Positions 25,826 through 64,000 of a stretch of 64,000 nucleotides of DNA are shown piece after piece. The position numbers and the translations under genes were made by a program. This DNA is from Pseudovirgaria hyperparasitica (Eukaryota), in NCBI GenBank assembly GCA_010093815.1, contig ML996567.1; one strand, given 5' to 3'. Positions within the stretch are counted from its first letter, which is position 1, and each line of letters opens with the position of its first letter. Below the pieces are notes generated by a model that was given only the letters and a program-made list of their open reading frames with translations, had not been told where the DNA came from and did not search any database.

Positions 25826-27457
25826 TCAAACCCTCTCCTGACCCCCAACCTTCTTATACTCCTTCCGCACCTTATCCCAATCCACAATCCTCCGCTTCCG
25901 ATGACTCCGCGCAATGCGCCACCGCACATACAACATCACCGCATCACGTACACTCACAAACAAGCACCCACCAACCAGACTCCGGCCCCATCTCGTCTGC
26001 AATACGCCCGTGGGACGCCCTGATGTCGGTGCGGAGATGAGTGCTTTGGGGAGCGAGCAGCGGAGCAGTTCGCCTACGACTGCAGCGACGGAGGGGAAGA
26101 GCAAGGCGCCGAAGATCGTGTCTGCGAGGCGGGTTATGCTGAGGTATTCGTGCGGACGTTGGGCGCGGGGTGCGCGCGGGACGTTGGGAGCTGGTGCTGC
26201 GTCGTCGTCTTGCTGTGCGTCGGCGGCGTCGAGGGGTGGTGCGTTGAGCGGATGGGCTTCTTCGAGGGCGTGTTCTTCGGCGATGTGGTCGTGGTCGTGG
26301 TCGTGGCCATGGTCATGGTCATGGTCATGGTCATGGTCATGGTCATGGCCGTCTTCGACAATGATATCGAGGCCGATCTCGAGGACGTCGCCGTCGCCGT
26401 CGGCCGCGTGAAATATGCCGTCATCGTCGCCGTGCACCCCGTCTTGCGCATTCTCGTCCTGGCGTGATTGTGGTTGGACCTCACGGAGCCAGCGGCGCTC
26501 GTGCGCGCGCCAGACTTTCTCGTAGTAGAAGTTGTACATGCCACGCATGTAGGGTAGGAGAGCGAAGGATAGTGCGGCACTAGGAGGCCAGGTGAGGGGT
26601 GACTTGGACAAATCGATATTTATGTGACGTCCGGAGCTTGCGAAGAAGAGGAAGGGAACGATTGGGAGGAGACCATCGGCGAGGGACATGCGGGAGGCTA
26701 CGAGGAGGCCGGGGATGAGGGTGACACCGGTGTGGAGAGGTAAGGTTCGATAGAAGTTCTTGAAGAAAGAGAGCAGGAGAGATTGTTGGGAGTCTGTACC
26801 TTGGCCGAAGTGGTAGAGAGGCTCGAGGATTGCGCGGCCTTCAGTGTAGCCGAATATAAGGTATATCGTTGAGATGCCGTGCATGTGGCATAGCTGGTAT
26901 CCCGAGTACCCTATTACGCCGGCAATGCCAGGGAGTATGAGTGACCCAGTAAGCTTTTCGACGACCCGGACGACATCGACAATGTAGTCTCTTGGCCGTG
27001 ATATCTCTATCTTCGATTTGCACTGGGGACACAAAATTTCCTTGCGTTCTCCGGATCTTCTGCGAGTCTTTGGGGCTTCCATGTCAGCTATCCACTCCAA
27101 CAGGCAGGCTTCGTGCGCGGTGAGGGCGCATTTGCATGGACTGCGCCATTCAGAGCTGTCAGGTGTATCTTCGGTCTCATCTTGGAAACATATCCAGCAC
27201 TTGCGAACGTCGTCATCGTCTGCGAATGTTGAGGGTTTCGTGGGCTCGGTATTGGTTTGGGAGGGTTCAATCTGCTCGTCGGATTGCTTTTGTGTTGGAC
27301 TAGATGGTCTTCTGTTCAGCAAAAGGGTTTGCGAATCCTCTGATGTAGTCGAAAAGGCTTCGCTGTCGCCGCGTGCCACTTGCGCGGAAGGTTGGCACTG
27401 GGGTTCGCGAGGAGAGGAACGGCGTTGGGATGTAGCTCGTGGAGGTACAGAAGCCAT
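25826..27457 (-). CDS. RING-CH (MARCH-type) transmembrane E3 ubiquitin ligase
   Basis: CWIC...WRSPCKCALTAHEACLLEWI...CPQC RINGv motif, several hydrophobic helices and a His-Asp repeat. Confidence 0.9.
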   Translation of the reverse strand: MASVPPRATSQRRSSPREPQCQPSAQVARGDSEAFSTTSEDSQTLLLNRRPSSPTQKQSDEQIEPSQTNTEPTKPSTFADDDDVRKCWICFQDETEDTPDSSEWRSPCKCALTAHEACLLEWIADMEAPKTRRRSGERKEILCPQCKSKIEISRPRDYIVDVVRVVEKLTGSLILPGIAGVIGYSGYQLCHMHGISTIYLIFGYTEGRAILEPLYHFGQGTDSQQSLLLSFFKNFYRTLPLHTGVTLIPGLLVASRMSLADGLLPIVPFLFFASSGRHINIDLSKSPLTWPPSAALSFALLPYMRGMYNFYYEKVWRAHERRWLREVQPQSRQDENAQDGVHGDDDGIFHAADGDGDVLEIGLDIIVEDGHDHDHDHDHDHDHGHDHDHDHIAEEHALEEAHPLNAPPLDAADAQQDDDAAPAPNVPRAPRAQRPHEYLSITRLADTIFGALLFPSVAAVVGELLRCSLPKALISAPTSGRPTGVLQTRWGRSLVGGCLFVSVRDAVMLYVRWRIARSHRKRRIVDWDKVRKEYKKVGGQERV

Positions 27458-35975: not shown

Positions 35976-38900
35976 TCACTTCGTTGAGATGGCAGACATC
36001 CATTTCTGTTCGTCCTTCCTGTGAGTTTAGTTAGTCTGAGAGTGTCAAGGTGGTGTGTATCTGCTGTGATCGCACGCACCTGTCAAAATGCAGCAGCATG
36101 CCCAACACCGGCAGTAGCTGCATCTGATACTTCTTGTCTCTCTGCTCGAGAAACTGCAACAGGACGTTCTTGAGATAGACAAAGTCTATCTCTGCCTTAC
36201 TCTCCTTGCCCTCCATCATCGGCGTACGGGCCTTGCCTGCCGGACTTGTGACACGCGACGAGTCCAGCGATGTTCGCGAAGACGGTGTGTCCGCGTTTCT
36301 GGCCGATCCCACTTTCAAGCTCTTCAGTTCATCCGCCATCGTTTTGCTCGACTTTGTGACTTTGTCCAATCGTGCTTGGGTATCGTCCAAGGTGCGCCTC
36401 AAGTCACTTTTCTCCTTGTCCAGCTCGCGAGTCTGCTTCTCGCCCTCATCCAGCGCGTCTCTGAGCTGTGCCATGGCTTGACGCACTTCGGCCACCTCCT
36501 CACTTGCGCGTGCTGCTCTGGTCTCTAGCTCTCCGTTCTGTCGACGCAGCACCCGCTCCGTCGCCTCCAAGTCATCCCGTGCCTCGACAGCTCGCGCCAG
36601 CGCCTTTTCAGCATCGCGTGCCTTTTGTTTCAGTTCCTCTGTCTCGCGGCCGCGTCGTCTTGTCAATGTGTTAGTCTGCTCCTCCGCGCGCTCGCGCTCT
36701 TCCACGGCGATGTCCAAGCGTTCCTGCATGTCCTTGACACGTGCGTCGGCCCGGCCTTGAGCTTCAGCGAGAAGACGCCGCATAGTCTCGCCTTCGCGAG
36801 AGCGTTCGGAAAGCAAGCGATGTGCGTCAGCAAGTTCCTCCTCGAGGGAGTCGCAGCGGCCGCGGATCTCTTTCATCTGGGTGGACATCTCTTGGGTCTG
36901 ATCTTGCATGGAGTTCATAAGGGATTGGGCAGAGGCGTATTGGGCGCTTTTGAGTGAGATGTCTTCACGAAGGCTAGAAGAGTCTGCCTCTAATTGATTG
37001 ACCTGTTTTTCGAGTTCACTGAGCTTCTTCCTCGTGGTTTTGAGCTCCTCTTGAGACTTCATGAGGTCTTTCGTGAGCTTCTCTTTTGACTCTATTGCGT
37101 CAGCTCGCTCGCTCTCGGAGCGTTGTATGTCGCGTTGCGCTTTGCGGTTGGTCTCCTCAAGGCTTATTCTCTGGCTTGTTTCTTGCTTGATCTTGTTGTT
37201 GAGTGCCTTGATATCAGAGTCCTTGTCGGTTACCTGCGACTTGAGCGAAGTTACTTCTGATTTAAGATCTTTCTCCCGCGCTTCTAGCCGTCTGACTTCG
37301 GCGGCTTTTGAACTTAGCTCATCTTTAGTACTCTTGAGTTCCGAGACTTCTTTGCGCAGCGAGACTAGCTCGGGCTGGGCCTTTTGCAGGACCTCACGCA
37401 TGTCAGACAGGTCCTTGAATCGAGTAGCGGCAAGTTGCTGAGCCGCAGAAAGGTCCGTTTGCAATGTGTCTGCCCTCTTTTTAAGGTCCTCGAAATCTCT
37501 GGCCAGAGTATCATGTTTTTGAGTAGAGCTGGTTTGATTAGAAGCATGACTACGCAACTCTGTAATCTCAGTCTCTAGTTCAGCAACGCGTGCCTTGAGA
37601 GCGTTCTTTTGAGCCTCGATTTCCTTGATCTTCTCTTTGGCATCAACATGATCCCCACCGACATTAACGAGATCGTCACGGAGCGATTCAATTTCCTCCT
37701 TCAAGTCATCCTGGTCCTTTAGATTCCTTTGAAGCTTTTCTATTGCAGTCTCTCTCTCGGTGAGCTGCACCTCGAGAGACTTGATCAAAGAGACCTTCTC
37801 TTCCAAATCAGCTTTTACCTGTGTGAGATCTTTTTCCACTTTCTCCAGATTCCCAGAGGAGGAAGCTCCAGTTGCAGCGGTCGTCCCATTAGCTTCAGTA
37901 ATAACAACCGACTCAGCTGCTTTGTTGCCTTTCTTCTTTTTCTTGTTCTTCTTCTTTGAGGCAGCTGATGCTGGTGCTATACTAGGCACTGGTTCTGGCT
38001 CTTCCTTGTCTTCTTCACTCTGTTCCTTACGTATAGACTCTAAATCGTTTCGGGCTTTGTCTCTCTCTTTCTCCGTAATAGATAATTGAGCTCGTAGACT
38101 TTGCATGAGGCCATTCGTGGTGTCTAGTCGTTTCTCGTTCTTGGCTGCAGCCTCGCGGAGCCCGGCAAGTTCCTGCTCTAGGAGTTCGTTTTGCTTGAGC
38201 AGCTTTTCATCCCTTTCTTTCGAAAGATCAGAGTAGTCGGTGTTCGCAGAAGCTCTTTCCAGATTGTTTGTCAATGTCTCCTTTTCAGATTCAAGGCTTG
38301 CTATGCGCTCCTCATGTTCTGAATTTGCGACTTTTTGAGCTACCTCAGCTTTCTGTAGTTGGTCTTTTAGACTAGCGGCTTCAGTCTCCAGTGTCTCTAC
38401 ACGTTCTGAAAGTTCCTTTTCAGCGCGCTGCTTGAGATCTCGGAGAGACTGTAGATCGATAGTTGAGGATTCCAAATTTTGCATAAGGCGTTCTGCCGAC
38501 TCTTTGGTGCTTCCAAGGTCAGTCTTCAGGGCCGCATTCTCCTTCTCGAGATGCTCAACTTTCTTTGCCTTCGTTTGCAGTTCTAACTGAAGCCTTGGTA
38601 ACTCATCCTCGTACGAAAAGAGATCCTTGGATTCGGGTTCTTCGCCTTCCTTGGACGAATCGACAGCTTTAGGCTCTGCCTCACCTTTTTCGGCCTTCAA
38701 AGCTTCTATCTCTAATTTCAACGCAATTGATGACTCTCGTGCTTCCTTGGCAGACTTCTCGGATTCTTCGTGTTTATTTTTGAAGTCGTCTCGCTCCGTC
38801 GACACTCGCTTGAGTTCTTGCAATACCATATCACCTTTAGTATTCAGCTGATTCAGGTATTCCACGAGCGCAGTAGGATCGCTAATGGAGCTCAGGGGGG

Positions 38901-39537
38901 TATTTTCTCGCAGGGAAGCTTCGAATGGCTCGATAGCGGAGACACGAGCATGCGCGATTCGATACGATCGAAGTAGTTCTACTTGTATCAGTCGACCGTC
39001 GACACAGTGCCAACATAGTAGACATACCGCCATATTTGGACTCTAGTTTCTCCAACTTCCGCAGCTTTACGCGAACCTCAGTCGGAAGTTCCACTGGTTT
39101 CGGCCCCTCATCTACGCCAGCTCCGTCGCTCTTATCCCCTTTGTCAGGTTTGTCGCCATCTTGAGAGCCTTGTGCCGGACTATCGGACGATCCTTTGTCC
39201 TTCGCAGACAAGGGGGTCCCAGTACGGCTCAGTTCATCTTCATCGCCTACAACAAAGTCGGGATCGAACTCTGAGGGATCAGGGCCTTTTCCAGCTGGGG
39301 CGCTCTTTGAGGTGCTGTCTGACCGGGTCTGGCGTTTGGACGGAGAACCCGTGCGACCGGAGGAGCGCTTCGCTGTTGATGCGGCTCGCGAAGGGGCTGC
39401 TGGCTGAGTTCCTGAAGCGCGCTGACGAGCTTGCTCTTCAGCTATCCTAGTATCAAGCGCATCTTTCAAGCGCTAAAGTAATACATCAGTTACGTTGGGC
39501 TTGCTGTGTTTACAATAAATGATCGTACCTGAAACAT
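35976..39537 (-). CDS. IMH1: GRIP-domain golgin Imh1-like (4 exons)
   Basis: MFQ|RLKDALDTRIAEEQAR N-terminus, long coiled coil, and C-terminal GRIP IDFVYLKNVLLQFLEQ..LLPVLGMLLHFD..DEQKWM. Confidence 0.9.
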
Positions 39538-43374: not shown

Positions 43375-43954
43375 GGTGCAATCGCTTCCAAGCATATGTA
43401 ACGATATTTTTATACCCCTTCGTTTTCTTAACGTCTGGCGCAGGTCGTTGGCGGACTCATTAGTGACTGGAGGCGGCTGTAGACTTTACAGAGGGCAATG
43501 GTTTACTGAATGACACTCATTCCGATAGAGCATCACATCTGCAATTGTTGTTATAGATCAAATTACGCACTTGCCGTTGATGAGGTGCAAGTATGGCGAA
43601 GCAGTGGCCAAGGACAGCGTTCTGATCTTGAATCATGAAGCCGTGCCCTGGATGCACCAGGTCAACAAGATCATTAAAATGGGTCTCGACTCGTAGGAAT
43701 GATCGACAATCGTGCAGTAATTAGTCCGTGCGCTGGGAGAGCTGCTGCGGCACTGACGCAACAAGGATTCACGTTGGATTTATGGTGGTCCGTGCTCACG
43801 TAACCTGCTCGTCGCCTTGTGCCTCTCTATATTCAAGTATTCATTCCTCCCTCGCATGCACACTCATTTGTGCCCTTACCTATTCAATGTACTTAAATCA
43901 CTCGTCTGATTCTCGTTCGGACTCAGTCACACAGACATTGCGGCCATGTTTGCC

Positions 43955-45604
43955 ATGCTGCCTTTCTACAGTACATGCGATGAGTGCTCGCTCAAGACGT
44001 CAAGACAGAAGTTCATTAGTTTGACCTTCAAGTCCTTGCCGTTTCTCCTTACATTCTTAGTTGTCGCAATCGTCGTGTACACCAGATTATTTCCTCTTCT
44101 TGCAGGAAGAGACGAGCCGGTCAAAGAACGCCGTGACAGCCTGCCCACTCATTCGAAAAGCTTCGGCGAGAAATCCAGCCACTGGACGTCCCGCTTCTCC
44201 ACATCCGCCAAACGTATAGCTGGAGTCACTTTCGCAACAAATATAGCATTATCTGCAGTCTTAATCGAACTCTTACTCTGCGAAATATCTGATGCCCTGA
44301 ATCCAGCGGCACGCAGCCTTGCTCTGCGGGTTACAGTCCCCCTTCTACTATATCTCCTCATCCTAGTGACCCCGGCACTCGAATTCCATTCCATCATAAG
44401 CGCAGCGGGGTATGGCTTCGTCAATGCAAAGAAAGGCAATAGAAGGGTAGCATGGCTTCTTCAGCTTCTGGCCTTGACGGCATGGCTCGTAGGGTTTTGG
44501 TATCTGGGCAGAGGACTTCTTGGCTCATACTTGCATGAGAAGTCATATGTTCGCCAGCACAGCTTTAGCGAAGGATGTCTTGAAAGAATCGGCGTGATAG
44601 GGATAGCCCTTATGGCTTCCTTGGCTGGCTTTGCAGCTGTTTCATCGATATGGCAGTCATTTGGAATCAAGTCGAGGATTGTATGTCAGCTGACAGGTCT
44701 ATTGTGGCCTTACTAAGATTTGACTTAGGTCACCGAGGCTGATATTGCACGGAAGCAAGCTGGACTTGAAGCGACGACGGAAATGCTAGATACGAAACAA
44801 AGCAGACTGCGCGCCCTGCAAAGAAAGGTAACCGAAGTCCCAAACACTGGAATTATGAATCGCGTCTTTACCACCATAAGCGGGAATCCAGAAGGTCAAG
44901 AGCGTAGCGCTTTGCATATGGAAGTCTCTGGATTGGAGACGATGCAAAGGTCTTTAAAACATTCGCTTGCGACCCTCAAAAATCGCAGACAAGAACAGCA
45001 ACGGGCCAAGACTGCACTGGGCCGCTTTCTAAATCTCGTTCAATACATCTTCGCACTCTACTGTATGTATAGACTAGGCGCAACAACACTCGCGACCGTG
45101 CGAAGATTCCGGTCCCCAGACACAACATTCTCAAACTCCGACCCGGTCAACAACATCCTGGCTCTCCTCGCAAAGCACTGGGACCCGAAGCTAGATAGAG
45201 CAGCCTGGAGCCGTCAGATATCTTTTCTGCTCTCCGGAGTCATGCTACTTGCGAGCTTTAACGCGGTCCTTCAGACATTCCTGCTCTTCGCTAGATTTTT
45301 GCCGGGCGTATTGCAGCATGCACAGGCGAATCTTGCACTTATCGTTTCGCAGGTTGCTGCGACCTATGTGATCAGCTCGACTCTTCTTCTTCGCAGTAAT
45401 CTACCAAGGGAGATGAGCACTGTGATATCTGATGCACTAGGGGCACCCCTAGAGCCGAAGTTCGTTGAGCGGTGGTTCGAAGGCTGGTTCCTGACCATCG
45501 CGGCCGCGACGGCACTTGGAATCTGGATCAGTAGAAAGATGAGGAGCGTTGAGTGGGACGATGACTATGGTGGCACGGATGTGGAGATGGGAAAGATGAA
45601 TTAG
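43955..45604 (+). CDS. GPR89/GPHR (ABA-GPCR-like Golgi pH regulator) family membrane protein (exons ~43955-44680 and 44729-45604)
   Basis: ELLLCEI, RIGVIGIALMASLAGFAAVS, a central coiled coil, DPVNNIL, SRQISFLLSG and YVISSTLLLRSNLP. Confidence 0.88.
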
Positions 45605-47813: not shown

Positions 47814-50009
47814 ATGCCCAGGAATCCGAAAAATCTGACAATCGACACCTCCATCACGACACCGAACATCTCTGCAACCAACGACTCCAGCAGCCCCCTC
47901 AGCAGCGTCCCATCCAATCCTGTCTCCAGTCCTACAGAGATAGCACCTCCACCTGCTTTCAAACCCGCAATCAACAGGACAATCCTCCGCTCGAAATCCC
48001 AGCCCCCTACTACTACGACTGCTACTCAACCCCCTGCCCCTATGGCTCCTCGTAAGGGTACGGCAGATGCCAAGGCTAATGCAGGCTTGAAGCCAAAGCC
48101 AAGACAGAATGCAGCTGCAGCAGCTAAAGCCAAATCGGCTTCGCCCATCGAGGCTCATGTCCCTGAGAAATACAGGACGACTTCTCTGGCAGCACAAACA
48201 CAAGCACAAGCACAACCCAGCACCGACGCCCCAGTAGGCCGAAAACTTGCGAAGGCTACAAAATCGGCACGCAAACGACCAGTCTACGACGACTCCAATG
48301 ATGATGACGACGATGACGACGATGATGGCAATGGCGACAAGGAAGCCGAGCACGTCCGCGATAGCGACACGTCTAAATCGTCCCACACCAGAGACCTCAA
48401 AGCCGCGAGGAAAGGGAAGCAAAAGGTCATTGACAAAGACCCACCCAGATCTCCCTCCAAGTCTCCCTCCGCACCTCCTGAGAACATAGTCAAACGCAAG
48501 ATCCCGCCAGGTAATCGTCTGCCGGGTAAAGGCAATGCCAAAGCCAGTTCAGGGAGGAGAGTACCTAGACGAATACCAAAGGATCATTTGGGTCGACTGA
48601 TCAGAAACCCAAAGTTGATACCTAAAGCTACGGCGATGCTCAAGGCTGCGGCGGCAGCCTATAAAGCTGATAGAGAGGAGGAAGGCGAGGATAGTAGTGA
48701 AAGCTATCGCATAGATGAGGAGGATGATGAGCACCTGCCGTCCCAGGAGCATCACGATGACGAAAATCATGATAGGCGGCAGGACGAAGACTACATGGCA
48801 GAGGACGAGGGTGCTGAGGGCGGTGCTAGTCTCGAGAGAGACGAAGCAAATGAAAGCAACGAGGACCCCGATGATGGGCCTTTCCCGGGCAAGACTGGGA
48901 AATCTGCCAGCTCGAGCAATTTCAGGGGCACAGAGCCATCGTCCGGTAGCGAGAGCAGCAGCTCTCACATCTCTGCTCGCCCCCGCCCAGGAGAGCCACA
49001 AAAGCAGGTTCTCGGGCGCAAGAGAGGCAATGGAGCTGCTACCAAGGCGAGCGTCAGTGGACGAGGAAGACCTAGCAATGGTTGGAGAGGTGCTGCCCCT
49101 GGGGCACCTGACGATTCAGACCACTCGTCCAGCGACGGCTCTGGCAGGAATGCCAACATTCCTCGCCGTCGTAGCCCGGGACCATCGCCCCCTGAGAGAG
49201 CCAACGGCCAGTCTCGCGGTCAACACAGGCCGCAGCACGATGATCTTCGAGATGCCATCAGAGCGTTTGGCAGTTCTCCCGACGGGGACGAAGACGACTC
49301 CGAGGCCGACAATGGCCTAGACACCCCCTCCGACGCCCTCTCCACCACCGAGGACGACGACGACAACAACAACAACAACGACAACGACGCCCGCACCATC
49401 CCAGGCTGGCACAACGCCGAATACCTCCAATTCGACATCGACATGAACAAGCGCTACCTCACCCACATCGAGGGCCTACAAAACTCCTTCCTCCACGCCC
49501 AGAGCATGAACCAGAACCTCCTCAACAAGCTCAACCGCAGACGGCTCCGAGAGCGAGGCCTACACACCCGACACGCCGCCGCCTCCCTCAACGACGACAA
49601 CGACGAGCACGCCCAGCAAGCCGCCGAGATCGCCAAACTGCGCAAGCAGAAGCGCGACCTGCTGCGGCGCAACCTGGAGCTGCGGAAGCGCGAGCGTGCG
49701 CTGCGGCCGCTGGCGCAGAACGCAAAGTTCTATGTTCGCGGGTACAGGCGCTACAAGAGTAGGTCTCTGCGGGAGTCGGGCGCGTCGTGGGTGGATTCGG
49801 ACGGGGATATCTTTGGTGATGCGGATTTTCCGGGGAGTGAGGGGGTGGAGGAGGGAGAGGAGGCGGAGGTCGAGCCGGTTGCTCCGACCATGGCACGCTC
49901 GAAGAAGAGGGGCCGGGGAGAGGTGGAGGAGGATGAGGAGGTGGAGGGGGCTGGTGGGAGGAGACTGCCTCCGGCGAAGAAGACGAAGAGGGCAGGGGGG
50001 AGGAAGTGA
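47814..50009 (+). CDS. Low-complexity, largely disordered orphan with a C-terminal coiled coil and NLS-like end
   Basis: 731-aa open frame with alternating basic and acidic blocks, coiled-coil-like EIAKLRKQKRDLLRRNLEL and terminal PPAKKTKR. Confidence 0.6.
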   Translation: MPRNPKNLTIDTSITTPNISATNDSSSPLSSVPSNPVSSPTEIAPPPAFKPAINRTILRSKSQPPTTTTATQPPAPMAPRKGTADAKANAGLKPKPRQNAAAAAKAKSASPIEAHVPEKYRTTSLAAQTQAQAQPSTDAPVGRKLAKATKSARKRPVYDDSNDDDDDDDDDGNGDKEAEHVRDSDTSKSSHTRDLKAARKGKQKVIDKDPPRSPSKSPSAPPENIVKRKIPPGNRLPGKGNAKASSGRRVPRRIPKDHLGRLIRNPKLIPKATAMLKAAAAAYKADREEEGEDSSESYRIDEEDDEHLPSQEHHDDENHDRRQDEDYMAEDEGAEGGASLERDEANESNEDPDDGPFPGKTGKSASSSNFRGTEPSSGSESSSSHISARPRPGEPQKQVLGRKRGNGAATKASVSGRGRPSNGWRGAAPGAPDDSDHSSSDGSGRNANIPRRRSPGPSPPERANGQSRGQHRPQHDDLRDAIRAFGSSPDGDEDDSEADNGLDTPSDALSTTEDDDDNNNNNDNDARTIPGWHNAEYLQFDIDMNKRYLTHIEGLQNSFLHAQSMNQNLLNKLNRRRLRERGLHTRHAAASLNDDNDEHAQQAAEIAKLRKQKRDLLRRNLELRKRERALRPLAQNAKFYVRGYRRYKSRSLRESGASWVDSDGDIFGDADFPGSEGVEEGEEAEVEPVAPTMARSKKRGRGEVEEDEEVEGAGGRRLPPAKKTKRAGGRK

Positions 50010-50235
50010 GGGGGGATGCTGTCGGATGTATAAATTCCGGCGCAGGGTGCGCAAGATTGTCGTGTATCATACTGGGAGTATAGCACTGAGCGAGCTCTTC
50101 ACACTTGAGGAGTCGTTGCTGTTTGACATAGCTTGACAATTGCATGTTCGTTTCTGTTTGATCTCCATTAAAAGCAGCACATAGTAGTGCTAAAAGCGAC
50201 CATGACCGTTGAGCCACTATAATATTTCTCTAACA

Positions 50236-50550
50236 AACATAACTTGTAGTGGTTATACCTAACTTAAAAGCACCTATTCTATGATATAGTCAAGACTAAA
50301 GCAGATCTAATGGCTATACACGTAGATATAAGCTCTGTATAGCATAACTTGTTATAGTTATATCCCCTTCAAAAGCACTATTTTTCTAGCCCGGTCAAGA
50401 ATAAAGCGGTTCTAGAAGCTATACACGTAGACATAAGCTCTACATAATATAACTTATTGTAGATATGCCTACTTTTAAAGCACTGTTTCTATAACATAGT
50501 TAGGAATAAAGCAAATTTAGTAGCTATACACTTGAACAGAAGCCCTATAT
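50236..50550. repeat. Three degenerate tandem copies of a 105-bp AT-rich unit
   Basis: GCTATACAC at 50313, 50418 and 50523; ATAACTT and AAAGCAC recur at about the same 105-bp spacing. Confidence 0.85.
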
Positions 50551-50859
50551 AACTGTTACGGCTACGGCAGTAGCAACACATGTATAATTAATGTAGGCAG
50601 TAACCACTGACCGGGCGGTTGTATAAGTACAACCAACCGGTCACTTAGATAGAAATGTCATGCTTTATGACCAACTCAACTTGAACTGTCAATGAACTTG
50701 ACAAAGTGGTAGCTGAAAGACAGCACCCACCAGTTCGTACATTTCCGATACTACTATATCACCTTAAACCTCTATACACTCTGACGCTTTCTAGGCCCCT
50801 TGAAAGCTATAAAACCCATATCCATTCCACCGATCCATAAATTCCCCCTTATAGGTACG

Positions 50860-51030
50860 CCCAACTACCTATACCCATCACACCACAAAGTGATTTCTCT
50901 AGACTTGGATAGTAGTATCATCTATACCCACCCAACCAACCCACGACTTCCCTCCCTTAGAAGTAAACCCAACTATCTATACCCAACCCACCACTCCGCA
51001 ATTTCCCTAGGCTTATACCATAGTATTTAC
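50860..51030. repeat. Degenerate ~108-bp duplication
   Basis: CCCAACTAYCTATACCCA at 50860 and 50968, each followed by CACCAC..ATTTCYCTAG..TAGTAT. Confidence 0.65.
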
Positions 51031-51478
51031 CTCACAAGCCTGTGTTCATCAGTCTTTATATACGTAGGTATACATGTTAAAATCATACCCAACCTACCGA
51101 TCCACAAATCTTCTCTCTCTCTCTTTAGATTTTCAAAAAAACCTAGTACATACACACCTCTCCTTCTTCTCACAACAAGATACAAGATATCAAGGAAGAG
51201 AAGAAGCCCGCTCTAAATGCCAATCAAATAGAGAAGAAGATAAGATGGGAATCGTAAAGACATGTTTTGATAAAAATAAAAAAAAATTCATGGACCCGTT
51301 TTTCTTCCAAACACTAAACGGCGTTGTAATCGTCGTCTTTCTTCTTCTTCTTCTTCTTCTTCTTCCCAGCTATGTACACAAACCCCCCCAAACCCCCAAA
51401 ACCAACCAACCAAATGCCTCTGCGTCAGGGCATATTTTGGGGGGTTATCTTTCTCCCCCCAAAGAGTCCTCCTCAAGC

Positions 51479-53038
51479 TCACTGCGGCAGACCCATCAAA
51501 TGACCCGCCGCGGCCGCACACGGACTCAAGTCCAGCAGCAAGTCACCGGCCTTGATATCAATAGCCGCCGTCTGATTATCCTCAATACCAAACGACACAA
51601 CCAGCACATCATCCCTGAACCCCTGATACTTCGACCCGGCATCCTTCCACGCAAACGAGCTAATATACAGCATCTCGGTACGATTGAACACCTCCGACCC
51701 CGGCTCCTTCATCGACACGGGGTTACCTCTATCCTTGTACCCGCCGCGGCCCGAGATCCAGAACGGCTTCGTGCTGAGGGCAAACAGGGCGAACGGGGCG
51801 GTCCGGCTGAAAAGCGCAATGTACGGCTCGTACACGGCGCTGAACATGCCGACGTATTTCTTGTGCTGGTATATCGTCATCGCAAAGGTATTCGCTTCGC
51901 TCGGGACACACTTGGGGTCAGCTCGGTCACACGTCGTGATCGCAAGGGAGTTTGTGCTCTGGTGGATCTTCTCGTGGGCTTCGGGCTCGAATTTCGGCAT
52001 GTGCTGCTCTATGCATGCCGCGTCGGTTGCAGCCTGCGACGCCAGATCCTCGCCGACAGAGCCATCCGGGGAGAGCTTTGCAAAGGCGCGCTTGGGCGCG
52101 ATATCGAAATGCACGTAGGTTTCGTTGTTCCAGTCGAAGAAGAAGAACCAGTTCTTCTCCACGGACGACCATGAGCCTGTAGGCCGCTGCAGTTCGACGG
52201 CGTTGCGGAAGGGTGTCTCATCGATGCCGCCGCCAAAATCGGTCAGCATGCGGAAATCCTGTGCCCACATTCCCAGGCAGGTGTGGACGGAGTTGGAGCC
52301 GAAAATGACATAGGGGATGTCTGGACCCCAGAAGACACGGGCGTCGTGCGGGCCGATGTTCAGAGCAAAGAAGGCGATAGGGCCTTCACAGTGTCCGCCG
52401 TTGGGGGTATTCGCGATAGGGAGGATTATGGGAGGTGATATACACTCGAGGACGTCGTTTTGGAACTTTGCGCTGCAGACTAGTTCGACGTAGAATACTG
52501 CCGTCGCAGGCGACCGCGGAGGGTGCAGGCGCTGAGCGACGACGATCCAGTGATCTTCGAGATATGGATGAGGTATAATGTTCGGATTTATGGCACGTTC
52601 GCCGTGGCCCCAGTTGATTGGGAAGTATGCACCATTCTTCGTCGACACAGACTTGACCACACGGTGTGTCCCTGATGCATCGTATAGCAGGTCTGGCTTG
52701 GCGAGATTGTTGTCTACTATATGTATCGAGGTATCTGTATCTGGGCCCGGGCTGTTCGGTGGAGAAGGGAAGTTTACGACAGGAGTGTTAGGCTTCAAGG
52801 CTGGATCGAGGTTGGGGTCAAGGTTCGGGTCGAGATTGGGATCAAGGTTTGGATCGAGTTTGCCAGGAATGGCAGCGCTTGGAGGCAGGTGAGGTTTCTG
52901 GGCATCTGCTTCATTGAGAGGTGTAGGATTCCATAGTTGGTCTGTAAATGTTTTATCGTAGCTCTTGAAAAGGACGACGCTGAGAATGAGGAGGACGGCG
53001 ATGGCAGGGATGAGGCGTTTGGTGCTGCGGATGAACAT
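51479..53038 (-). CDS. Type II membrane (Golgi-like) protein with a putative five-bladed beta-propeller, GT91 beta-mannosyltransferase/GH130-like
   Basis: N-terminal signal-anchor, Pro-rich stem with (LDPN)n, then INPNIIPHP, GPHDARVF and SVEKNWFFF, which resemble the (F)NP, EDPR and EKNW motifs of GH130/GT91 propellers; SFGIED near the C-terminus. Confidence 0.65.
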   Translation of the reverse strand: MFIRSTKRLIPAIAVLLILSVVLFKSYDKTFTDQLWNPTPLNEADAQKPHLPPSAAIPGKLDPNLDPNLDPNLDPNLDPALKPNTPVVNFPSPPNSPGPDTDTSIHIVDNNLAKPDLLYDASGTHRVVKSVSTKNGAYFPINWGHGERAINPNIIPHPYLEDHWIVVAQRLHPPRSPATAVFYVELVCSAKFQNDVLECISPPIILPIANTPNGGHCEGPIAFFALNIGPHDARVFWGPDIPYVIFGSNSVHTCLGMWAQDFRMLTDFGGGIDETPFRNAVELQRPTGSWSSVEKNWFFFFDWNNETYVHFDIAPKRAFAKLSPDGSVGEDLASQAATDAACIEQHMPKFEPEAHEKIHQSTNSLAITTCDRADPKCVPSEANTFAMTIYQHKKYVGMFSAVYEPYIALFSRTAPFALFALSTKPFWISGRGGYKDRGNPVSMKEPGSEVFNRTEMLYISSFAWKDAGSKYQGFRDDVLVVSFGIEDNQTAAIDIKAGDLLLDLSPCAAAAGHLMGLPQ

Positions 53039-53308
53039 GTCGACTCAGATGGCGTGAGAGTGTGGTCGCGTGTGGATATAGGATGGCCTCATGGCTGTGC
53101 CCGGCTCAGGCGTCGAAAGGCAGGAATTCTATGTAGAAGTTGCACACACGCGAAACGCTGACAATGGAGAATGCGAGTGATGTTGTGAAGTTCAACGCAG
53201 GATTGAGCTATTGTGAGAAAGAGGACTAGCGCCAGTAGTCGGAAAAGCTTCAGGGGAGAGAGAGAGGGAGAGGAAAAAGACGGCGGATGGAGACGAGGAC
53301 AGACAGAA

Positions 53309-53340
<32 letters not shown>

Positions 53341-54179
53341 CGATAGTGACGTGCACGGGCCAATATCGCTTTCCTCTCCTCATGGCAGAGGGAGAAGCTC
53401 TCGGCAGTCCAGACTTGAAATTCCTCCGGTCAGCCACCACCAGAAATGTAAAACGTCCTCGGCTGCGTCTGGCCAATGAATGAATATACATATAATGTTA
53501 CTATCAACATATGAATGAACATGTACATATCCATAGCATTGATACGAGCCTGAGCCTGCCTGCAAGCCGGGCCAGGTAAGAAGTAATAATAGATTCAAAC
53601 AATATATCTTGCAGTTGCAATTCAATATCGCCTCCAGCTCCCTCGCACGAGCTTATGTTCCCCCCCAAGAGTCTGCGATGCGCGAGCTGAGCCACGCATA
53701 GACTTGGCACGCTTGTTCTTCTTGATTGGATGTGAAACACCCGGGGATCTCCAGGTGGTCCCCCTGTCTACTGAAGCCCAGGGCCCCCCTCCTTGTATCG
53801 GAGATCAATGCTGTGGACTAGTGCCATCGGTCCCTTCAAAGTATCAAAATTCTTACCTGGTCGCCAAATTGCACGTGCAAATGTGCGATTTCACCATGCT
53901 GCTTGCACGCGCTCCTTCATGTCACGCCGTGTTCATGGTAGCGATCTGCATTGTAATGACAAGCATAACCGTGCATGTAGCCGTCCATCGTTCGGTGTGG
54001 CCGTTGGGCCGCTTGCCGCTGCCGACTACCGGCGAGTAAGCAAGCATGAACTGGTACCGGTAGACTGACCGAGCTATGGACATCGTGTTAGTGATACGGA
54101 GAATTAAGCTTGAGGATAACAATGTGTCATGTATGATGAATTACTAATATTGTACGCCAATGTATGCGATGTGTCTGGT

Positions 54180-55847
54180 TTATGCCGCAAACTGTCCTTT
54201 TTCTAGGCTCAATGGTGTACCCACACCCAGCCCCCTAGGTGTGCTAGACACTAACGGTGATGATGACGGTTGAAGTTTGCGCCAAAGGTTGCCAGCAGCC
54301 CGTACGCAAGGCTCATCAATGAGCTTCGTCATCACATCACCCAGCCACAGCGTGAGCGGTAGTGTGATGATGTTGACCAGCAGGAAGTTGGACTCTAGTC
54401 CGAGAGGTCCGATGTGCGGTATGGGAAATGCATTTGGCCATCCGGGAAACTCAGTCTCGTCCAGACCTTCTCTGACAAGTCCGACGGCAGAGTATAGTCG
54501 TCCACCGACGAGCCACAGTACAGGACCGTGGGCGAGGTAGAAGCAGTACGAGATGCGGCCCATGAATTGGCAGAAGCGCGATTCGAAGAATGCCTTGAGG
54601 AAGTGTATCCGTGGAATTACGGCGACGATAGGGACTGCGCCGAAGAAGAGGTAGAACCACTTGGGTGCGAAGACGGCCTGTGGTTTGAGGAATGACAGCC
54701 AGTACCAGCCCGGCGTCACTCTGATATCCTCAAGCTCATTGCTCTGCGAGGGAACACCAGCGAAAAACATGCCAATCATGAACAGACTGTACCAGATCAT
54801 CTCTTGGTATGGCGCCAGATTGACAATCCATCGCGGTAGGTTACCCAGCTTGGCAAGCACGTCCAAATCCGCCAGAATCATGCCGGCGACAAAGTAAGCC
54901 ACAAACCAGCCATCAACAATCCACATGAAGTACCAGAGTAAGGCGAGTTCGGCGTAGAGTCGGGCGTTGCGCGAGAATCGTGCGAAGGATAGACAGGCGA
55001 GGTAAACAACGAGCGAGCCTCGAAGTTCGCATGGTATCGTCCAGATGTGGTCGTTGAGGTAGAAGTAATCTTTCCCGCCCATGTTGAAGACGAATGAGTA
55101 GTTTTTGAGTTCCACATACCAATCCCAGACCTCACCCAGCCACGTCGTGTTCATCTGATGAGGTCCTTTCAGATCCGTCAGGTGGAGAAATGTTGCGTAC
55201 AAGAACGTTACGATAGCGATTGGAACCCATAACCTGAACCATCTTCTGAATATGGCCGATGCCAAATTGTCACCGAGCTTGCCGTATTCCCCATTGTTTA
55301 TCATCGTGAGTGGTTTGAGGGTAAGGACGTATCCTGAGATGACGAAAAAGCAGCCAACGGCAATGTGGCCACCAGTGAAAAAGTTGCGGATGAATGGCAG
55401 ACAGGCAAAGTAGAAGTTGCCATGATGGCCGAAGCCATTTTCCAGGATGCGATCGGCGTGATTGAGCGCGCTGTGTGCCCAAAGTTCGTGGTGTAGGATG
55501 TAGACTAAGAATGCTGCAAAGCCTCTCAAACCGTCTAGATATGCAGTTTCTCGTAATTTGGTGTTTGAGCGTTCATTCTTCAAGCCTGCAAACGACGGTC
55601 GCGTCGCCTTCACGACTTGCCAGAACAGACTCTTTGCGCGCAATCGAGGAGAGGATGGAGGATCTGAGGCGGGCTTCCAGGTTTGAGGATGGTCTAAGAG
55701 ACCTTCTTGAACGACAGGCATGATGGCAGCGAGTGTGGGCTGCTGGATGGCGGGTACGCCGGACTCGATGTCGATATCCTTGAAGAGTTCACCAATGTAG
55801 ATGTCGGCAGACTTTGTTCGACGATCGGGAGGATTGCGCGGTGGCAT
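54180..55847 (-). CDS. Acyltransferase-3 (OafA-like) polytopic O-acyltransferase
   Basis: YLDGLRGFAAFLVYILHH, AVGCFFVISGYVL, RRWFRLWVP, HIWTIPCELRGS and GRISYCFYLAHGP; about 10 hydrophobic helices. Confidence 0.93.
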   Translation of the reverse strand: MPPRNPPDRRTKSADIYIGELFKDIDIESGVPAIQQPTLAAIMPVVQEGLLDHPQTWKPASDPPSSPRLRAKSLFWQVVKATRPSFAGLKNERSNTKLRETAYLDGLRGFAAFLVYILHHELWAHSALNHADRILENGFGHHGNFYFACLPFIRNFFTGGHIAVGCFFVISGYVLTLKPLTMINNGEYGKLGDNLASAIFRRWFRLWVPIAIVTFLYATFLHLTDLKGPHQMNTTWLGEVWDWYVELKNYSFVFNMGGKDYFYLNDHIWTIPCELRGSLVVYLACLSFARFSRNARLYAELALLWYFMWIVDGWFVAYFVAGMILADLDVLAKLGNLPRWIVNLAPYQEMIWYSLFMIGMFFAGVPSQSNELEDIRVTPGWYWLSFLKPQAVFAPKWFYLFFGAVPIVAVIPRIHFLKAFFESRFCQFMGRISYCFYLAHGPVLWLVGGRLYSAVGLVREGLDETEFPGWPNAFPIPHIGPLGLESNFLLVNIITLPLTLWLGDVMTKLIDEPCVRAAGNLWRKLQPSSSPLVSSTPRGLGVGTPLSLEKGQFAA

Positions 55848-58800
55848 GGGGTCGTCCACGATTAGAGACGATGACGGGGCGTGTCGAGCTCACGTTGGAG
55901 CAGCGACGATAGTTGAAAAAGAGAGTCTGGAGAGGTTGAAGCGCCGCTAGCAATGAAGCTACTGGCCGCGCACGACATCAACCAGTGGCTTGTTCGGGCT
56001 GGTGGACGGCGGACAAGGATGCAGGCGGGCACTGCCAGGGAATACGCGCTTGGCGATTCGATGACAGGAGATGTTGGTGCACGCGTCTCACTCTCGTTCC
56101 GAAGCTGTGAACAGGGAGGGAGACAGTGGCGTGAGACTGCTGCTACATTATTTACAATGATTACCGTCACCCTGGGCACACTGCGGCATCAAAAGTGGGA
56201 GCAAAGGAACCGATATATCCAGTAATATTAGGTCATGATGATTTTGCGCTTTAGCTAAGCTTATATTACCAACAGCACTTCCTGAAAAGTCTCAAGATCC
56301 TTATGCAAGATCAAGGCTAGTCCCATAATAGATGAAAGTTGTGATTATGGGGGAGACTTCGGTTGTTGATAACCGCTTATGTAGCCCTCGTAAAGTATCA
56401 TCTGTGTAAAGAAAAGCTGTAAGACAAGCTGGATCTAGCTATCTCATAGGCTGGCACCCCCGCCCAAACGCAGTGACCAGCCGAGGCGAATACGGTGCGA
56501 GAAGATCAAGGCTCCGAGGTATTAGGAAGAGCCTAAGAGGTAAGGAGAAGAGGTGCGATTATGTAACGTGGTACATGTTTCTCAGTATACTTATACGCTA
56601 CATAATTAGTACCCACGTACCTACTACAGTTTAGTACAGCAGAGTCGGATGCGGCAAGCTGCAGCGATGTCTGCACCTGGTGACATATTCAGACAGAGCT
56701 CTCTCTTTAGACTTCTCTTCTTGCAGCTTCCGGGCGCTTTAGGTTTCAATACGAGGAAACGAGTCGGGCAATTTGAGTGCACACTGCATCTCTAGTAGGT
56801 ACAGTAGCTGTGGATGATTTGGCGGATAAGGCGGGAAAAAGTGGTGCCTTACCAGCGCTGTCTCTCATCGACGCCCCTCCGGGAGATAATTCATCAAATC
56901 GTTCGCACTTAGGAACGGGTTTCAAAAGCCCCTGTTCACTGTTACTTGTCACTAATCATTACGGTCACTAATTGATACTGACATTGGTTGGAAAGTCAAG
57001 ACTCAGGAGAAGCTGGAGAGCGGCCCGTCGAGCGTTAGCCTTTTTGACTAACCCCCTGCCCCACGCCCCTCGCCGTCGCCGTCGCCGGTGCACACACACT
57101 CCTTTGATCAGAATCTGAAACTCATTCGTATTGAGCAGTGAGCACCAGGGTCTGTCCGTACTCTGGTCTCTCACATGTCTCTCCAGACCCTTCAGCTCGT
57201 CTCAAGCTTGACCAAGGATCAAACAATCGAGCATGGGCCTCGCTGATCACAGATGGAATGCCATCGTCTCCCCTTAATAACGACGATATGAAGGAGTTGA
57301 GAGAGATAGCTATCCGACTAGAAGCAGACCGTGGCCGCAGAATTTGCAGGTGCTAGAGCGGAAGGAGCGGCAACTGTGCATTAGCTCTGCGGCGGCATGA
57401 ATCTATCTCAGCGGAAGAATAAGCTAAGGTTAGAAGGCATCACAATAACTATGACCTGGACCTGGCTAGGTATAGTAGTACATGGTAGATCTGGAGGCAA
57501 TAATGATGATATCGTGGGCATTATGCATTAGGTGAGGTTAAGTCTGCTGGAGCCTGGGCTACACTCGATCTCGCGCGGTAGGTAATTAGCTTGCACTCTT
57601 CGGTCGAGTTTCAGCTTTCATCACGCTCTCCACCACTACCACTGTTGCTGAGTGCCGTTGTTCATTCTGGTCCGTTCAATCATCGAGGAGCTGTCTGTTA
57701 GCCATTTCCGGTGCCAGGTCTCAGAGTGTGTCGGTCTGCTGTAACGGCCATTCAAACCTACACATCCATCCACCACGAGGCATCCAGCAACACAAAAAAC
57801 TGTGCGTGGAAGGTTCCGCCGAAATGGAGTGGCTTGGCAGCTCATTGTCGAAAGAAGCGTTAGGAGATAATCTCTGGCGCCTGGATCGCGAGATTGGACG
57901 TGCAGGTAGTGATGCAGGTCGGCCAGGGGGGCATGAGGGATAGGGGGCATTGGGCATAGCATGGGGCATAGTATGGAGCATGGAGCATGGAGCATGGGGC
58001 ACGCCGGACTCACGACTACGCAACCCCCCAGACTGCCGGCGCGTCTATTGGCCGACAGCGATGGCTTTTCCCATGAGGCTGTCTGGTGCTGGTGCTCGCT
58101 CTGTAATTAGTTAATTAGTGTATGGGATGTCTGTAGTGATTTCTACGTGGCTGCAGCCAGTCTCTCCTCAACGGGATGATGGAGCGAAGGGCTTGCTGCA
58201 TGGCATGTACATATGTCATGTCTGTCTTGAGCCAAGCCGAATGACATTTCACACAAGTCAATCAACCTTGAACAAGCAGCACGGGTGGCTGGCAGAGGCG
58301 CATGCTTCGTCATTTTCGCCATCCTCACTTTTTCTCACCTCGGCACTGCGACAAAAAGCGACATTGGCGTTACAAAGCTAAGACTTTTAGTCTCCTGGGG
58401 CTCCCTGCCATCTTCTCTACCACGCTTTCCCCCGCCAGCCTTCTCCATGACACTCACCGCCCCCCCCCCTCCCCCCCCTTCCATTCTCCTCCCCCTTGTC
58501 TTCTACGCCCGTACCTTTGGCGCAGTACAGCAAGCTGCACCCAGTAGTTCCAAACCTCCCCCATTCAGGTCCGTGCACAGCTCTTCTACACGCGCCCACA
58601 AATCACTTTCCGCCATCACCCAACTATCATCTAAATTACGACCTCTACTACTACTACTACTACTACTACTACTCTTCTTCTCCTCCTCGCTAATAACATA
58701 TCTCTCCTAATTGCCCCCCAGTCCCTCGTTTCACATCCACCTACCATTGTCATCTCATCCATTGTTATCGCGCCCTGTCCCCCCGCTGTCGTCTACGTTC

Positions 58801-58850
58801 CTCAAATGTCGACGTGAGCCTCACCCTCACGAGTCCTACTGCTACCCTTT

Positions 58851-60284
58851 ATGCGATCTCGACCACGCGGCTTGACCATAGACACAAAGATGCTGCTGAA
58901 CTCGCCGACGGCGACAAAATTCGGTGGCGCCTTCCCCAAACAGATCCAACGTGCTTTACCTGTCGGCATCGCCGTCGTCGTCCTCTTCTTCATCCTCTCC
59001 TCCGCTGGCTTCCGTGGCGTCTCGCTAGAGAACTCGTTGGAGGAAAACTCCCACATCAGCAAAGGCTTTCCCCGCAAAATATGGCAGACATGGAAAGCTG
59101 ACGCTCTCAACCTGGAAGAACGAGATCTGGGGCGCGCACGAACATGGACCACAAAAAACCCCAGCTATCGGTACGAGCTTCTTACTGACGACACCGACAT
59201 GTACTATGTCGAGACTCACTTCGGCCCGGAAGGCTTCAATCGACCCGATATCGTGCACATGTACCGTTCCATTACTGCCAGAATCATCAAGGCCGATCTG
59301 TTGCGCTATCTCATCATGTACGCTGAAGGTGGTGTGTACACCGATATCGATGTCGAAGCTATCCGTCCACTCGAGCGATTCATCCCCGAACGATACAATG
59401 TCGAAGATGTTGATATGATTGTCGGTGTAGAAATTGACCAACCTGAGTTCCGCCAACATCCCATTCTCGGACAGAAATGCCAGTCGTTCTGCCAATGGAC
59501 TTTTGTCTGCAAGCCGCGTCTGCCCGTCATGATGAAACTCGTCGAGCACATCATGAAGTGGCTCAACGAGCTGTCAAGGAAGCAGAACAAGTCGATTGGC
59601 GAACTTGAACTTGACTTTGACGAAGTCATCACAGGAACTGGGCCGTCTGCCTTCACAGATGCCATCATTGCTGAGATGACCAGAAAAGAGGGCAAGGTTG
59701 TTGGCTGGGATCAGTTTCACGGCATGTCCGAGTCAAAGCTCGTTGGAGGAGTTCTGGTTCTCACTGTGGAGGCTTTCGCTGCAGGCCAAGGTCACTCCGA
59801 CTCGGGCAATCACGACTCTCGCTCTGCATTGGTGAAGCATCGATTCCATGCGTCAGGGTGGCCAACTACCCACCCTCGTTACTTGCATCCCGTCTACGGC
59901 GAGGTGGAGCACTGCAACTGGAACGCCGATTGCGTCAAAGCGTGGGATGAGGGCACAAAGAACTTTGAGAGCCTCCCTCAAGAAGAGAAGGACAAACTGA
60001 TTGCTGAGAAGAAGATCAAAGATGAGGAGGATGAGAAGAAACGCATCAAGGAAGAAGAATTGAGCTACGCTGCAAACGCAGTCTTGGGCCTCATCGGTGC
60101 TGGGCAGGTTCCCTTGACACCGGACAGTGTTTCGAGCCCAGCAGATGCTCCCGCCCCCGAACAGGGACCGCCCGCAGCATTTCCACCAAGCGATCCACCA
60201 GCCGCATTTCCACCTCCTCAAGAACAGCCAGCGTTCCCGGCGCCTGACGCAAGCCATCAGGAAGCGAAACTACGGAAGATATAG
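58851..60284 (+). CDS. GT32 (Och1/Hoc1-like) glycosyltransferase, type II membrane
   Basis: Signal-anchor, FPRKIWQTW, KADLLRYL..EGGVYTDID (DxD), QWTF, TGPSAFT and VKHRF; extra Cys-containing tail HPVYGEVEHCNWNADCV. Confidence 0.93.
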   Translation: MRSRPRGLTIDTKMLLNSPTATKFGGAFPKQIQRALPVGIAVVVLFFILSSAGFRGVSLENSLEENSHISKGFPRKIWQTWKADALNLEERDLGRARTWTTKNPSYRYELLTDDTDMYYVETHFGPEGFNRPDIVHMYRSITARIIKADLLRYLIMYAEGGVYTDIDVEAIRPLERFIPERYNVEDVDMIVGVEIDQPEFRQHPILGQKCQSFCQWTFVCKPRLPVMMKLVEHIMKWLNELSRKQNKSIGELELDFDEVITGTGPSAFTDAIIAEMTRKEGKVVGWDQFHGMSESKLVGGVLVLTVEAFAAGQGHSDSGNHDSRSALVKHRFHASGWPTTHPRYLHPVYGEVEHCNWNADCVKAWDEGTKNFESLPQEEKDKLIAEKKIKDEEDEKKRIKEEELSYAANAVLGLIGAGQVPLTPDSVSSPADAPAPEQGPPAAFPPSDPPAAFPPPQEQPAFPAPDASHQEAKLRKI

Positions 60285-60549
60285 TCGCACATTAGATGGG
60301 ACTCTCGACGCATTTACAATTCCAGCGATTTCCAACGTTTTCTGACGGCTCTATGGTCTTTTATCATTTTGGTGGTTGGTGTTTCTGGTGTTGAGCGGAA
60401 TTGGGTATATCCAGCCGGTTGGCTTGTTCACTATCTAGAGGGCGGTGCATTATCATAATAGACGTTGTATATACGAACACGATAGCATACGACATGCAGC
60501 AGCACAAATGACAAGGCACATATTCTAACGTGTTTACCTTTTTCAATGC

Positions 60550-63480: not shown

Positions 63481-64000
63481 TTGTCCTATTCTATCTCTAT
63501 ATTCTTAAATCATATACCATCTATATAATATATGGAGTGTTCAATATGGTCTTCGATGCTTCGTGTAGTCTATGTAGTCATGTGTCTATATAGACTATGA
63601 TGTTATGTAACCATGTAGAGGGTATAGTAATGTATGTATATGGACCATTTAGTCATGTTACTACATAGATTAATTATAGTGCTTGGGATTGAATACGTAC
63701 CGCTTTTCGCTGGCTAAGTGCAGTTTCAATGAGTGTGAAATAGAACCTAGATATTACCGTATTTAGTTTCTCTTATACGCTAGTAGAGTATCATATACGG
63801 CGTCCTAGTAGTATTCTAGGGATAGCTTTAGTTTTAGCGCGGATTATACCTTATAGAAACTATATATGTTTAGAGGTTTGATGTGGTCTCCTATCAAACT
63901 CACTAGTTCTAAGATGGTATAGTATAGTATAAGTGTACATTACCATGAGTATCTAGTTTACCATGTATGTATATACACACACCTATACACATATAAGAAA
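63480..64000. mobile_element. AT/TpA-rich segment, probable RIP-degraded repeat relic
   Basis: Abrupt rise in AT content with abundant TA/TAG/TATA and no ORFs; the element family cannot be identified. Confidence 0.45.

Follow-up and report, generated by a model that had tools for sequence, protein, structure and literature searches.

What might three adjacent genes for glycan-active enzymes make together in a filamentous fungus, and is their proximity more than an accident of gene order? The question is raised by a 64,000-nucleotide stretch of contig ML996567.1 of Pseudovirgaria hyperparasitica (GenBank assembly GCA_010093815.1), referred to below as the window. A sequence-only reading of it had proposed that a type II membrane protein with a propeller fold (here PROP), an acyltransferase-3 (AT3) and a glycosyltransferase of family GT32 together build, extend and O-acylate a dedicated surface glycan. 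The three open reading frames (ORFs) are present as listed in Table 1; AT3 and GT32 diverge from a common intergenic region and the PROP gene lies in tandem with AT3, downstream of it, as had been described. Each gene had been taken to consist of a single ORF, and assembled contigs span each ORF with no gaps, consistent with intron-less genes. The enzyme classes also stand, two by their Pfam families (PF01757 and PF04488) and the third by a structural model and fold searches. What has been shown for the trio is its ORFs, their families and fold, the conservation of their motifs and a conserved linkage.

Table 1. Coordinates of the trio and its associated features in the window, and of two further AT3/glycosyltransferase gene pairs in the same genome.
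Feature	Position	Strand	Basis
PROP, 519 amino acids, type II membrane protein, putative beta-mannosyltransferase	51479..53038	-	ORF; transmembrane segment 9-27; no Pfam family
LDPN-type low-complexity stem between transmembrane anchor and propeller	52795..52862	-	tandem repeat, period 12/24
Standalone acyltransferase-3 (AT3), 555 amino acids from first ATG	54180..55847	-	PF01757, E 6.3e-25
AT3-GT32 head-to-head intergenic region, 3.0 kb, candidate bidirectional promoter	55848..58850	.	divergent in 19/19 metagenome loci
Och1-like GT32, type II, 477 amino acids, DXD D165-I-D167	58851..60284	+	PF04488, E 5.9e-14
Head-to-head AT3/glycosyltransferase pair	G000:C9, L116:2059-3351 and L116:5830-6819	- and +	
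Head-to-head AT3/glycosyltransferase pair	G000:C6, L120:6063-7193 and L121:899-2272	- and +	

The linkage was assessed by comparing orthologues in other genomes, a check that the sequence-only reading had itself proposed, and the trio was found to stay together in three gene orders and in several ascomycete classes. Adjacency of identifiers was scored in the best 120 matches of each search, which form a sample and not a census. Among the matches listed, the three identifiers are consecutive in Chlorociboria aeruginascens (B7494_g2852-2854), Exophiala xenobiotica (LTR20_010798-800) and six Aspergillus genomes, namely A. oryzae (BAE58542-44), A. flavus (G4B84_004101-103), A. caelatus, A. parasiticus, A. 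pseudonomiae and A. novoparasiticus; the family identity of the cluster members was checked. In the same lists the identifiers of PROP and GT32 differ by two in Rhinocladiella, Paecilomyces and Helicocarpus, and neighbouring identifiers for PROP and AT3 occur in Emmonsia, Emmonsiellopsis, Stictis, Trichophyton, Microsporum, A. niger, A. hancockii and A. coremiiformis. The genera with linked genes presumably span the Eurotiomycetes, Leotiomycetes and Lecanoromycetes, and the linkage is likely to occur in Sordariomycetes as well.

A scan of metagenomes returned at least 63 PROP loci. Among the 63 listed, both partners accompany PROP in 19, AT3 alone in four, GT32 alone in four and neither in 36, these last being mostly short contigs; where at least 5 kb is available on both sides, 10 of 15 listed loci are trios. 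AT3 and GT32 stand head-to-head in every one of the 19 listed trios, and it is the position of PROP that varies: 15 have the order seen in the window, two have PROP behind GT32 and two have it convergent on GT32. As a control, the flanks of 14 non-redundant trio loci were compared, and genes were common to only 3 of 91 pairs. In the long trio loci examined there was no fourth conserved gene, nor did sphingolipid genes, sugar-transport genes, backbone enzymes, transporters or regulators recur beside the trio. Since the linkage recurs in distant fungi while the neighbouring genes do not, it exceeds what chance would give, and because the flanks turn over and no fourth gene recurs, the unit appears to be exactly three genes, kept through rearrangement. 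In trees (all built with FastTree only), linked AT3s are separated from the unlinked paralogues of the same genome by one branch with support of 89, and linked GT32s likewise with support of 95, the branches being long in both cases.

No Pfam family matches PROP at E ≤ 0.1, and searches of PDB sequences with PROP alone or with a 57-sequence profile gave nothing meaningful. A model built with 57 sequences (mean predicted local distance difference test score, pLDDT, 76.6; predicted template modelling score 0.74) begins with an N-terminal helix, followed by a stem that is disordered and by a beta-rich domain; residues 36-69 and 76-108 score below 50 in pLDDT. In Foldseek searches with the model the leading matches were GH130 mannoside synthases and phosphorylases (E 1.8e-08), with Leishmania GT108 MTPs also listed. 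A fold search of 48,161 chains placed four GH130 structures at the top (Z 19.9, 19.5, 18.6 and 17.9; root-mean-square deviation 3.4-4.0; 276-280 residues aligned), the best being 5ayc (Z 19.9, deviation 3.4, 278 aligned), and a GH130-like hydrolase (Z 17.1), a Leishmania protein (16.6) and GH62 (16.0) ranked after these. By Atlas features the nearest named family is Bmt (PF12141 clusters, 0.93-0.95, 208-218 of 256 shared), which serves as a lead only; among the Atlas matches to PROP, a family was shared by 7 of the 10 named ones in one query and by 3 of 10 in another. The modelled structure best fits a five-bladed beta-propeller of the GH130/GT108/GT91 beta-mannoside type, filed under none of these families.

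Residue conservation points in the same direction. In BT3780, a GH130 enzyme, N74, D142, Y302 and D363 contact the mannose at the -1 position, and D142, K199 and D363 are essential (PMC4599007); these residues were located on the 5a7v alignment by hand count. N151, D232, K295, Y403 and D487 of PROP are invariant in 120 of 120 homologues. When a profile of 68 PROP sequences was aligned to one of 72 bacterial GH130 sequences, the score was 24.2, which none of 30 column shuffles reached (maximum 21.7). The register, unreliable in blades 3-5, sets N151 with FN, D232 (in GPHDAR) with EDPR, K295-N296 beside NK and Y403 with the blade-4 tyrosine. Judged from sequence, PROP retains counterparts of the catalytic aspartate and of the -1 mannose pocket of BT3780. 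H359 and Q360 are also invariant and fall, by hand mapping, at the blade-4 position of the candidate base Glu268 of BT3780. The residue preceding the catalytic aspartate is His231 (119 of 120 homologues). In GH130 this residue is Glu in beta-1,2 enzymes and Tyr in beta-1,4 enzymes (PMC12814180), and since His231 replaces both, the sequence leaves the sugar linkage undecided.

PROP has a single N-terminal hydrophobic segment (residues 9-27), and an N-terminal anchor is found in 110 of 113 full-length homologues; being membrane-anchored, with conserved cysteines and N-glycosylation sequons, it is predicted to be a secretory protein. A profile search of 1.84 billion representatives recovered 356 proteins at E ≤ 0.001, and the distant relatives that could be named belong to Neolecta, Lipomycetales and Aulographum. 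Six relatives from Neolecta, Lipomyces, Dipodascopsis and Myxozyma (P0461, P0471, P0473, P0475, P0484 and P0486) mostly keep the DPR, EKN and HQ.TN motifs. A GH130 family search of the P. hyperparasitica genome gave no candidates; a BMT search gave none either, but its control was also without any match. BMT was not found in the 301 bacterial genomes searched, and none of 34 pattern matches in viral contigs was confirmed as a PROP relative.

The GT32 has an Och1-like GT-A fold. The yeast Och1 structure 9n3s is its best match both by profile (E 3.7e-33) and by fold (E 2.7e-13), D165 and D167 of the DXD motif are present in 119 of 119 homologues, and a single N-terminal hydrophobic segment (residues 36-54) agrees with an N-terminal anchor in 107 of 112 full-length homologues. 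It is the only copy of its subfamily in the genome, two other Och1-like genes being only about 34% identical. Sporothrix OCH2-4 failed to complement yeast och1 (PMC6312695).

The AT3 matches PF01757 with 88.4 bits, against a cut-off of 31 (E 6.3e-25), and has no SGNH domain. Its start is probably Met43 (55721) rather than the first ATG, since 11 homologues and the database model begin there. A database model with a different C-terminus is not supported, as contigs cross the end of the ORF without gaps. A simple hydropathy scan gave five or seven segments, depending on threshold, compared with the ten helices of the family, and the AT3 profile had no match in the PDB. Among fungal proteins it may correspond to Colletotrichum CHIP3. 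Four motifs, R108-X10-H119, F167xxxxG172, R202xxR205 and S433xxxY437, are conserved across 12 sequences. The corresponding R-X10-H, FxxxxG, RxxR and SxxxY motifs have been tied to acyl-CoA binding and transfer, and AT3 proteins acylate extracytosolic acceptors (PMC9833829, PMC12423673). With PF01757 and all four functional motifs, the protein resembles the bacterial standalone AT3s Oac, WecH and IcaC.

Taken together, the trio may be a Golgi module that acts on a glycan of the wall or of glycoproteins, with GT32 adding alpha-mannose, PROP adding beta-mannose and AT3 carrying out O-acylation, a reading to which we give about an even chance. What we infer here covers every activity and the order of the steps, as well as location, carrier and acyl group. 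GT32 would transfer alpha-linked mannose, probably 1,6-linked, from GDP-mannose to an acceptor glycan. Luminal PROP would then add beta-mannose, also from GDP-mannose, by a single displacement with inversion, with D232 as a GH130-type catalytic acid, in the manner of yeast Bmt. AT3 would take an acyl group, by default acetyl, from acyl-CoA in the cytosol, pass it through the membrane and esterify the new sugar with it. The product would most likely be a short alpha/beta-mannosyl side chain bearing O-acyl groups, carried by glycoproteins of the wall or secreted ones, or by a heteromannan. A bolder proposal, put forward tentatively and likelier to be wrong than right, is that PROP represents a new family of propeller-fold beta-glycosyltransferases, sister to GT91 and GT108, widespread in filamentous ascomycetes and with distant kin in Neolecta and Lipomycetales. 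The trio would then make an O-acylated beta-mannosyl surface epitope of moulds, including Aspergillus and dermatophytes, that was missed through alkali extraction and the absence of a Pfam or CAZy label. Alkali (1 M NaOH at 65 °C) would strip O-acyl esters.

Comparison with known systems places the proposed module between better-described ones. Yeast Bmt (GT91, PF12141) is the closest named family by Atlas features, not by direct alignment, and also has an N-terminal anchor. Bmt enzymes cap alpha-mannan with beta-mannose, acting after alpha-mannosylation on glycoproteins or a glycolipid (PMC4564806), and the same order is proposed for PROP. PROP differs from Bmt in lacking PF12141, in having His instead of Glu before the catalytic Asp, in being clustered with AT3 and GT32, and in its occurrence across filamentous ascomycetes. 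With the GH130 enzymes and the Leishmania GT108 MTPs it shares the five-bladed propeller, the catalytic-Asp motif and the -1 mannose residues, but it is only 8-13% identical to them, lacks PF04041 and is membrane-anchored. The companions of OchC in the Af3c cluster of A. fumigatus reportedly include an N-acetylglucosamine transferase, a deacetylase and a nucleotide-sugar transporter, and we know of no AT3 or propeller protein within that cluster. Unlike it, the trio lacks these companions and shows no conserved fourth gene in long loci. The Af3c cluster is a fungal glycan-building cluster around an Och1-like GT32 (PMC9769593), as the trio would be.

In A. fumigatus, AFUA_6G14040 is one of four GT32 och genes (PMC9964227). 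Its neighbours are annotated as 'acyltransferase, putative' (14030) and 'conserved hypothetical protein' (14020) (PMC3689640). By gene order and annotation, AFUA_6G14020-14040 probably corresponds to the trio. What och1-2 and och1-4 do has been called unclear (PMC9769593). A quadruple och mutant lacks conidial G3Man, a polymer obtained by extraction in 1 M NaOH at 65 °C (PMC9964227).

Several observations weigh against the proposed module. Within the accessible text of the respective papers, no phenotype is reported for the quadruple och mutant of A. fumigatus, in which AFUA_6G14040 is one of the genes affected (PMC11237753), and no beta-mannose is described in G3Man (PMC9964227). The linkage is incomplete: 5 of the 15 long listed PROP loci have no partner at all, and the P. 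hyperparasitica genome has two other PROP genes (50-56% identical) and three closely related AT3 genes with no partner within about 10 kb on each side. Solo PROP genes are scattered among linked copies in the tree, with 6 changes compared with a shuffled mean of 7.5, and the three homologues listed for Coleophoma crateriformis are on contigs that differ in size. A shared promoter motif did not rise above shuffled sequences (top 7-mer in 11 of 15 loci vs shuffled maxima of 8-11). As to the assignment of PROP, neither PF12141 (BMT, E ≤ 0.1) nor PF04041 (GH130) matches the window PROP or 31 distant relatives, the match between the GH130 and PROP profiles is weak (probability 2%, E 0.024), and D487 is not aligned in it, being placed by blade position only. 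Finally, the window PROP has Ser at position 400 (51839-51841), where 120 of 120 homologues and both paralogues have His. The glycan-building interpretation as first put forward is partly supported, by the linkage, the enzyme classes and a propeller now narrowed to the GH130/GT108/GT91 beta-mannoside fold; the shared product, co-regulation, Golgi location and acyl group are its presumed parts, and it is qualified by the PROP copies that stand unlinked.

Other explanations have to be set beside the Golgi mannan module. The acceptor may be a lipid, the trio building an O-acylated, beta-mannosylated glycosphingolipid on a glycosylinositol-phosphoceramide carrier. A membrane-embedded AT3 would suit a lipid acceptor, OchC, an Och1-like enzyme, produces the glycosphingolipid Af3c (PMC9769593), and Bmt5 and Bmt6 beta-mannosylate phospholipomannan (PMC4564806). 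We regard this, the main rival, as unlikely, given that genes for sphingolipids or sugar transport do not recur beside the trio and that nothing in the three sequences points to a lipid acceptor. The doubt may also concern PROP itself, which could trim the glycan as a hydrolase, phosphorylase or transglycosylase, or could transfer another hexose, for example the beta-galactose or beta-glucose side chains of conidial G3Man. The GH130 fold holds hydrolases, phosphorylases and dual enzymes (PMC4599007, PMC12814180), His231 matches the residue of neither the beta-1,2 enzymes (Glu) nor the beta-1,4 enzymes (Tyr), and G3Man depends on Och genes while its side-chain transferases are unassigned (PMC9964227). 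Synthesis is nevertheless favoured over trimming by the type II topology, the linkage to two biosynthetic enzymes, the closeness to Bmt in the Atlas and the invariant H359/Q360 where BT3780 has its candidate base, and mannose is favoured over other hexoses by the retained -1 pocket, so that this alternative appears quite improbable.

A different kind of objection is that the genes share a promoter and a hitch-hiking neighbour but act on different glycans, the linkage being regulatory or historical. PROP and AT3 do have unlinked paralogues in the genome, AT3 paralogues stand head-to-head with other, unrelated glycosyltransferases, and the correlated divergence of the three proteins (rho 0.38-0.62) is expected from vertical descent alone. 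Against this, PROP has stayed attached through three gene orders while outside neighbours turned over, and each of the three products is a membrane-anchored glycan enzyme; we consider separate roles very unlikely. Least probable of all, and scarcely to be expected, is a natural product of the kind of a small acylated glycoside or glycolipid that is secreted. Fungal AT3 genes do occur in natural-product clusters (PMC12423673), and Afu6g14020-14040 fell inside one automated boundary of a neighbouring secondary-metabolite cluster; manual curation, however, ended that cluster at Afu6g14000 (PMC3689640). Moreover, no backbone enzyme, transporter or regulator recurs beside the trio, and both glycosyltransferase candidates are type II luminal proteins.

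The trio is real and apparently undescribed: no description of this combination or of the PROP family was found in the literature searched, from which most subscription journals and bioRxiv supplements fell outside, so that a prior mention is possible. The accessible text of PMC4960244, PMC7388969 and PMC7426166 contains nothing on it. If the Golgi mannan module is correct, it would provide a pathway for an orphan Och1 paralogue of A. fumigatus, supply candidate enzymes for the beta-mannosylation and O-acylation of filamentous-fungal glycans, and add a putative, as yet unlabelled glycosyltransferase family on the propeller fold. In yeasts and bacteria, recognition by the host is affected by beta-mannosides and O-acetyl groups at the surface, so the product could matter to the interaction of moulds with their hosts, and it could also matter for glycoprotein production.

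The intergenic region between AT3 and GT32 is longer in the window than in the metagenome loci that carry both genes, where the gap is about 0.7-2.1 kb. It gave no tblastx or blastn match to other loci, and its k-mer sharing with them did not exceed that of shuffles. A 119-amino-acid ORF within it (57636-57995) was considered as a coding gene and rejected, as it has no tblastx support in other loci. Cover of the locus by assembled contigs comes from two runs of unrecorded kind, from one sample of one study. Contigs over 51373-53336, 53311-55937 and 58692-60482 show no gaps and no differing letters. At 56756-57112 a low-depth contig in both runs omits 51 bases with CT..AC ends (56931-56981); since this omission resembles splicing, the two runs may be RNA. 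The omitted segment is possibly a minus-strand intron about 1 kb upstream of AT3, belonging to an alternative 5' exon or a non-coding transcript. At most, there is a weak hint that all three genes were transcribed in one sample, and depth cannot rank the genes. Contig cover also runs over 50729-55937, from the 5' end of AT3 through PROP to about 50730, interrupted only at microsatellites, and long untranslated regions or AT3-PROP read-through are possible. There is little or no cover at 49000-50500 and over much of 56014-58518, and these holes were not counted as evidence.

Some observations concern paralogues and solo loci. The two other AT3 pairs in the P. hyperparasitica genome (Table 1) have the AT3 gene head-to-head with a gene for a PF05704 Caps_synth protein in one case and for a GT2-like protein in the other, and pairing of an AT3 with a glycosyltransferase may be a recurring fungal design. 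Elsewhere in this genome two divergent AT3 genes lie in tandem (G000:C12, L031:264-1814 and 2614-4023, both on the minus strand) and are 29-33% identical to the AT3 of the window. A 517-amino-acid ORF behind the C15 AT3 paralogue was examined and is not a PROP relative. Two solo-PROP loci, L044 and L086, carry a homologue of the RINGv gene of the window (25826-27457), which here lies 24 kb from PROP, and this is possibly the trace of an older shared neighbourhood. For a third solo locus, L092, there is a hint that the GT32 orthologue P0679 may share the contig at a distance of more than 10 kb.

Further out in the window are genes for two Golgi housekeeping proteins, a GRIP-domain golgin (36031-39033) and the Golgi pH regulator GPHR (43946-45604), neither of which has a match in the other trio loci. 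The flanks had been described as repeat-rich. They do contain microsatellites, one 105-bp tandem repeat and two short dispersed repeats, though the enrichment is only modest. The tandem repeat (3.1 copies, 50228-50553) adjoins a dispersed repeat of about 200 bp (approximately 50554-50753) with 11 other matches at 70-85% identity, and the other dispersed repeat (63760-63866, 107 bp) has 13 other matches at 81-92% identity. The repeats at 50228-50753 and 63760-63866 are likely to be relics of decayed mobile elements.

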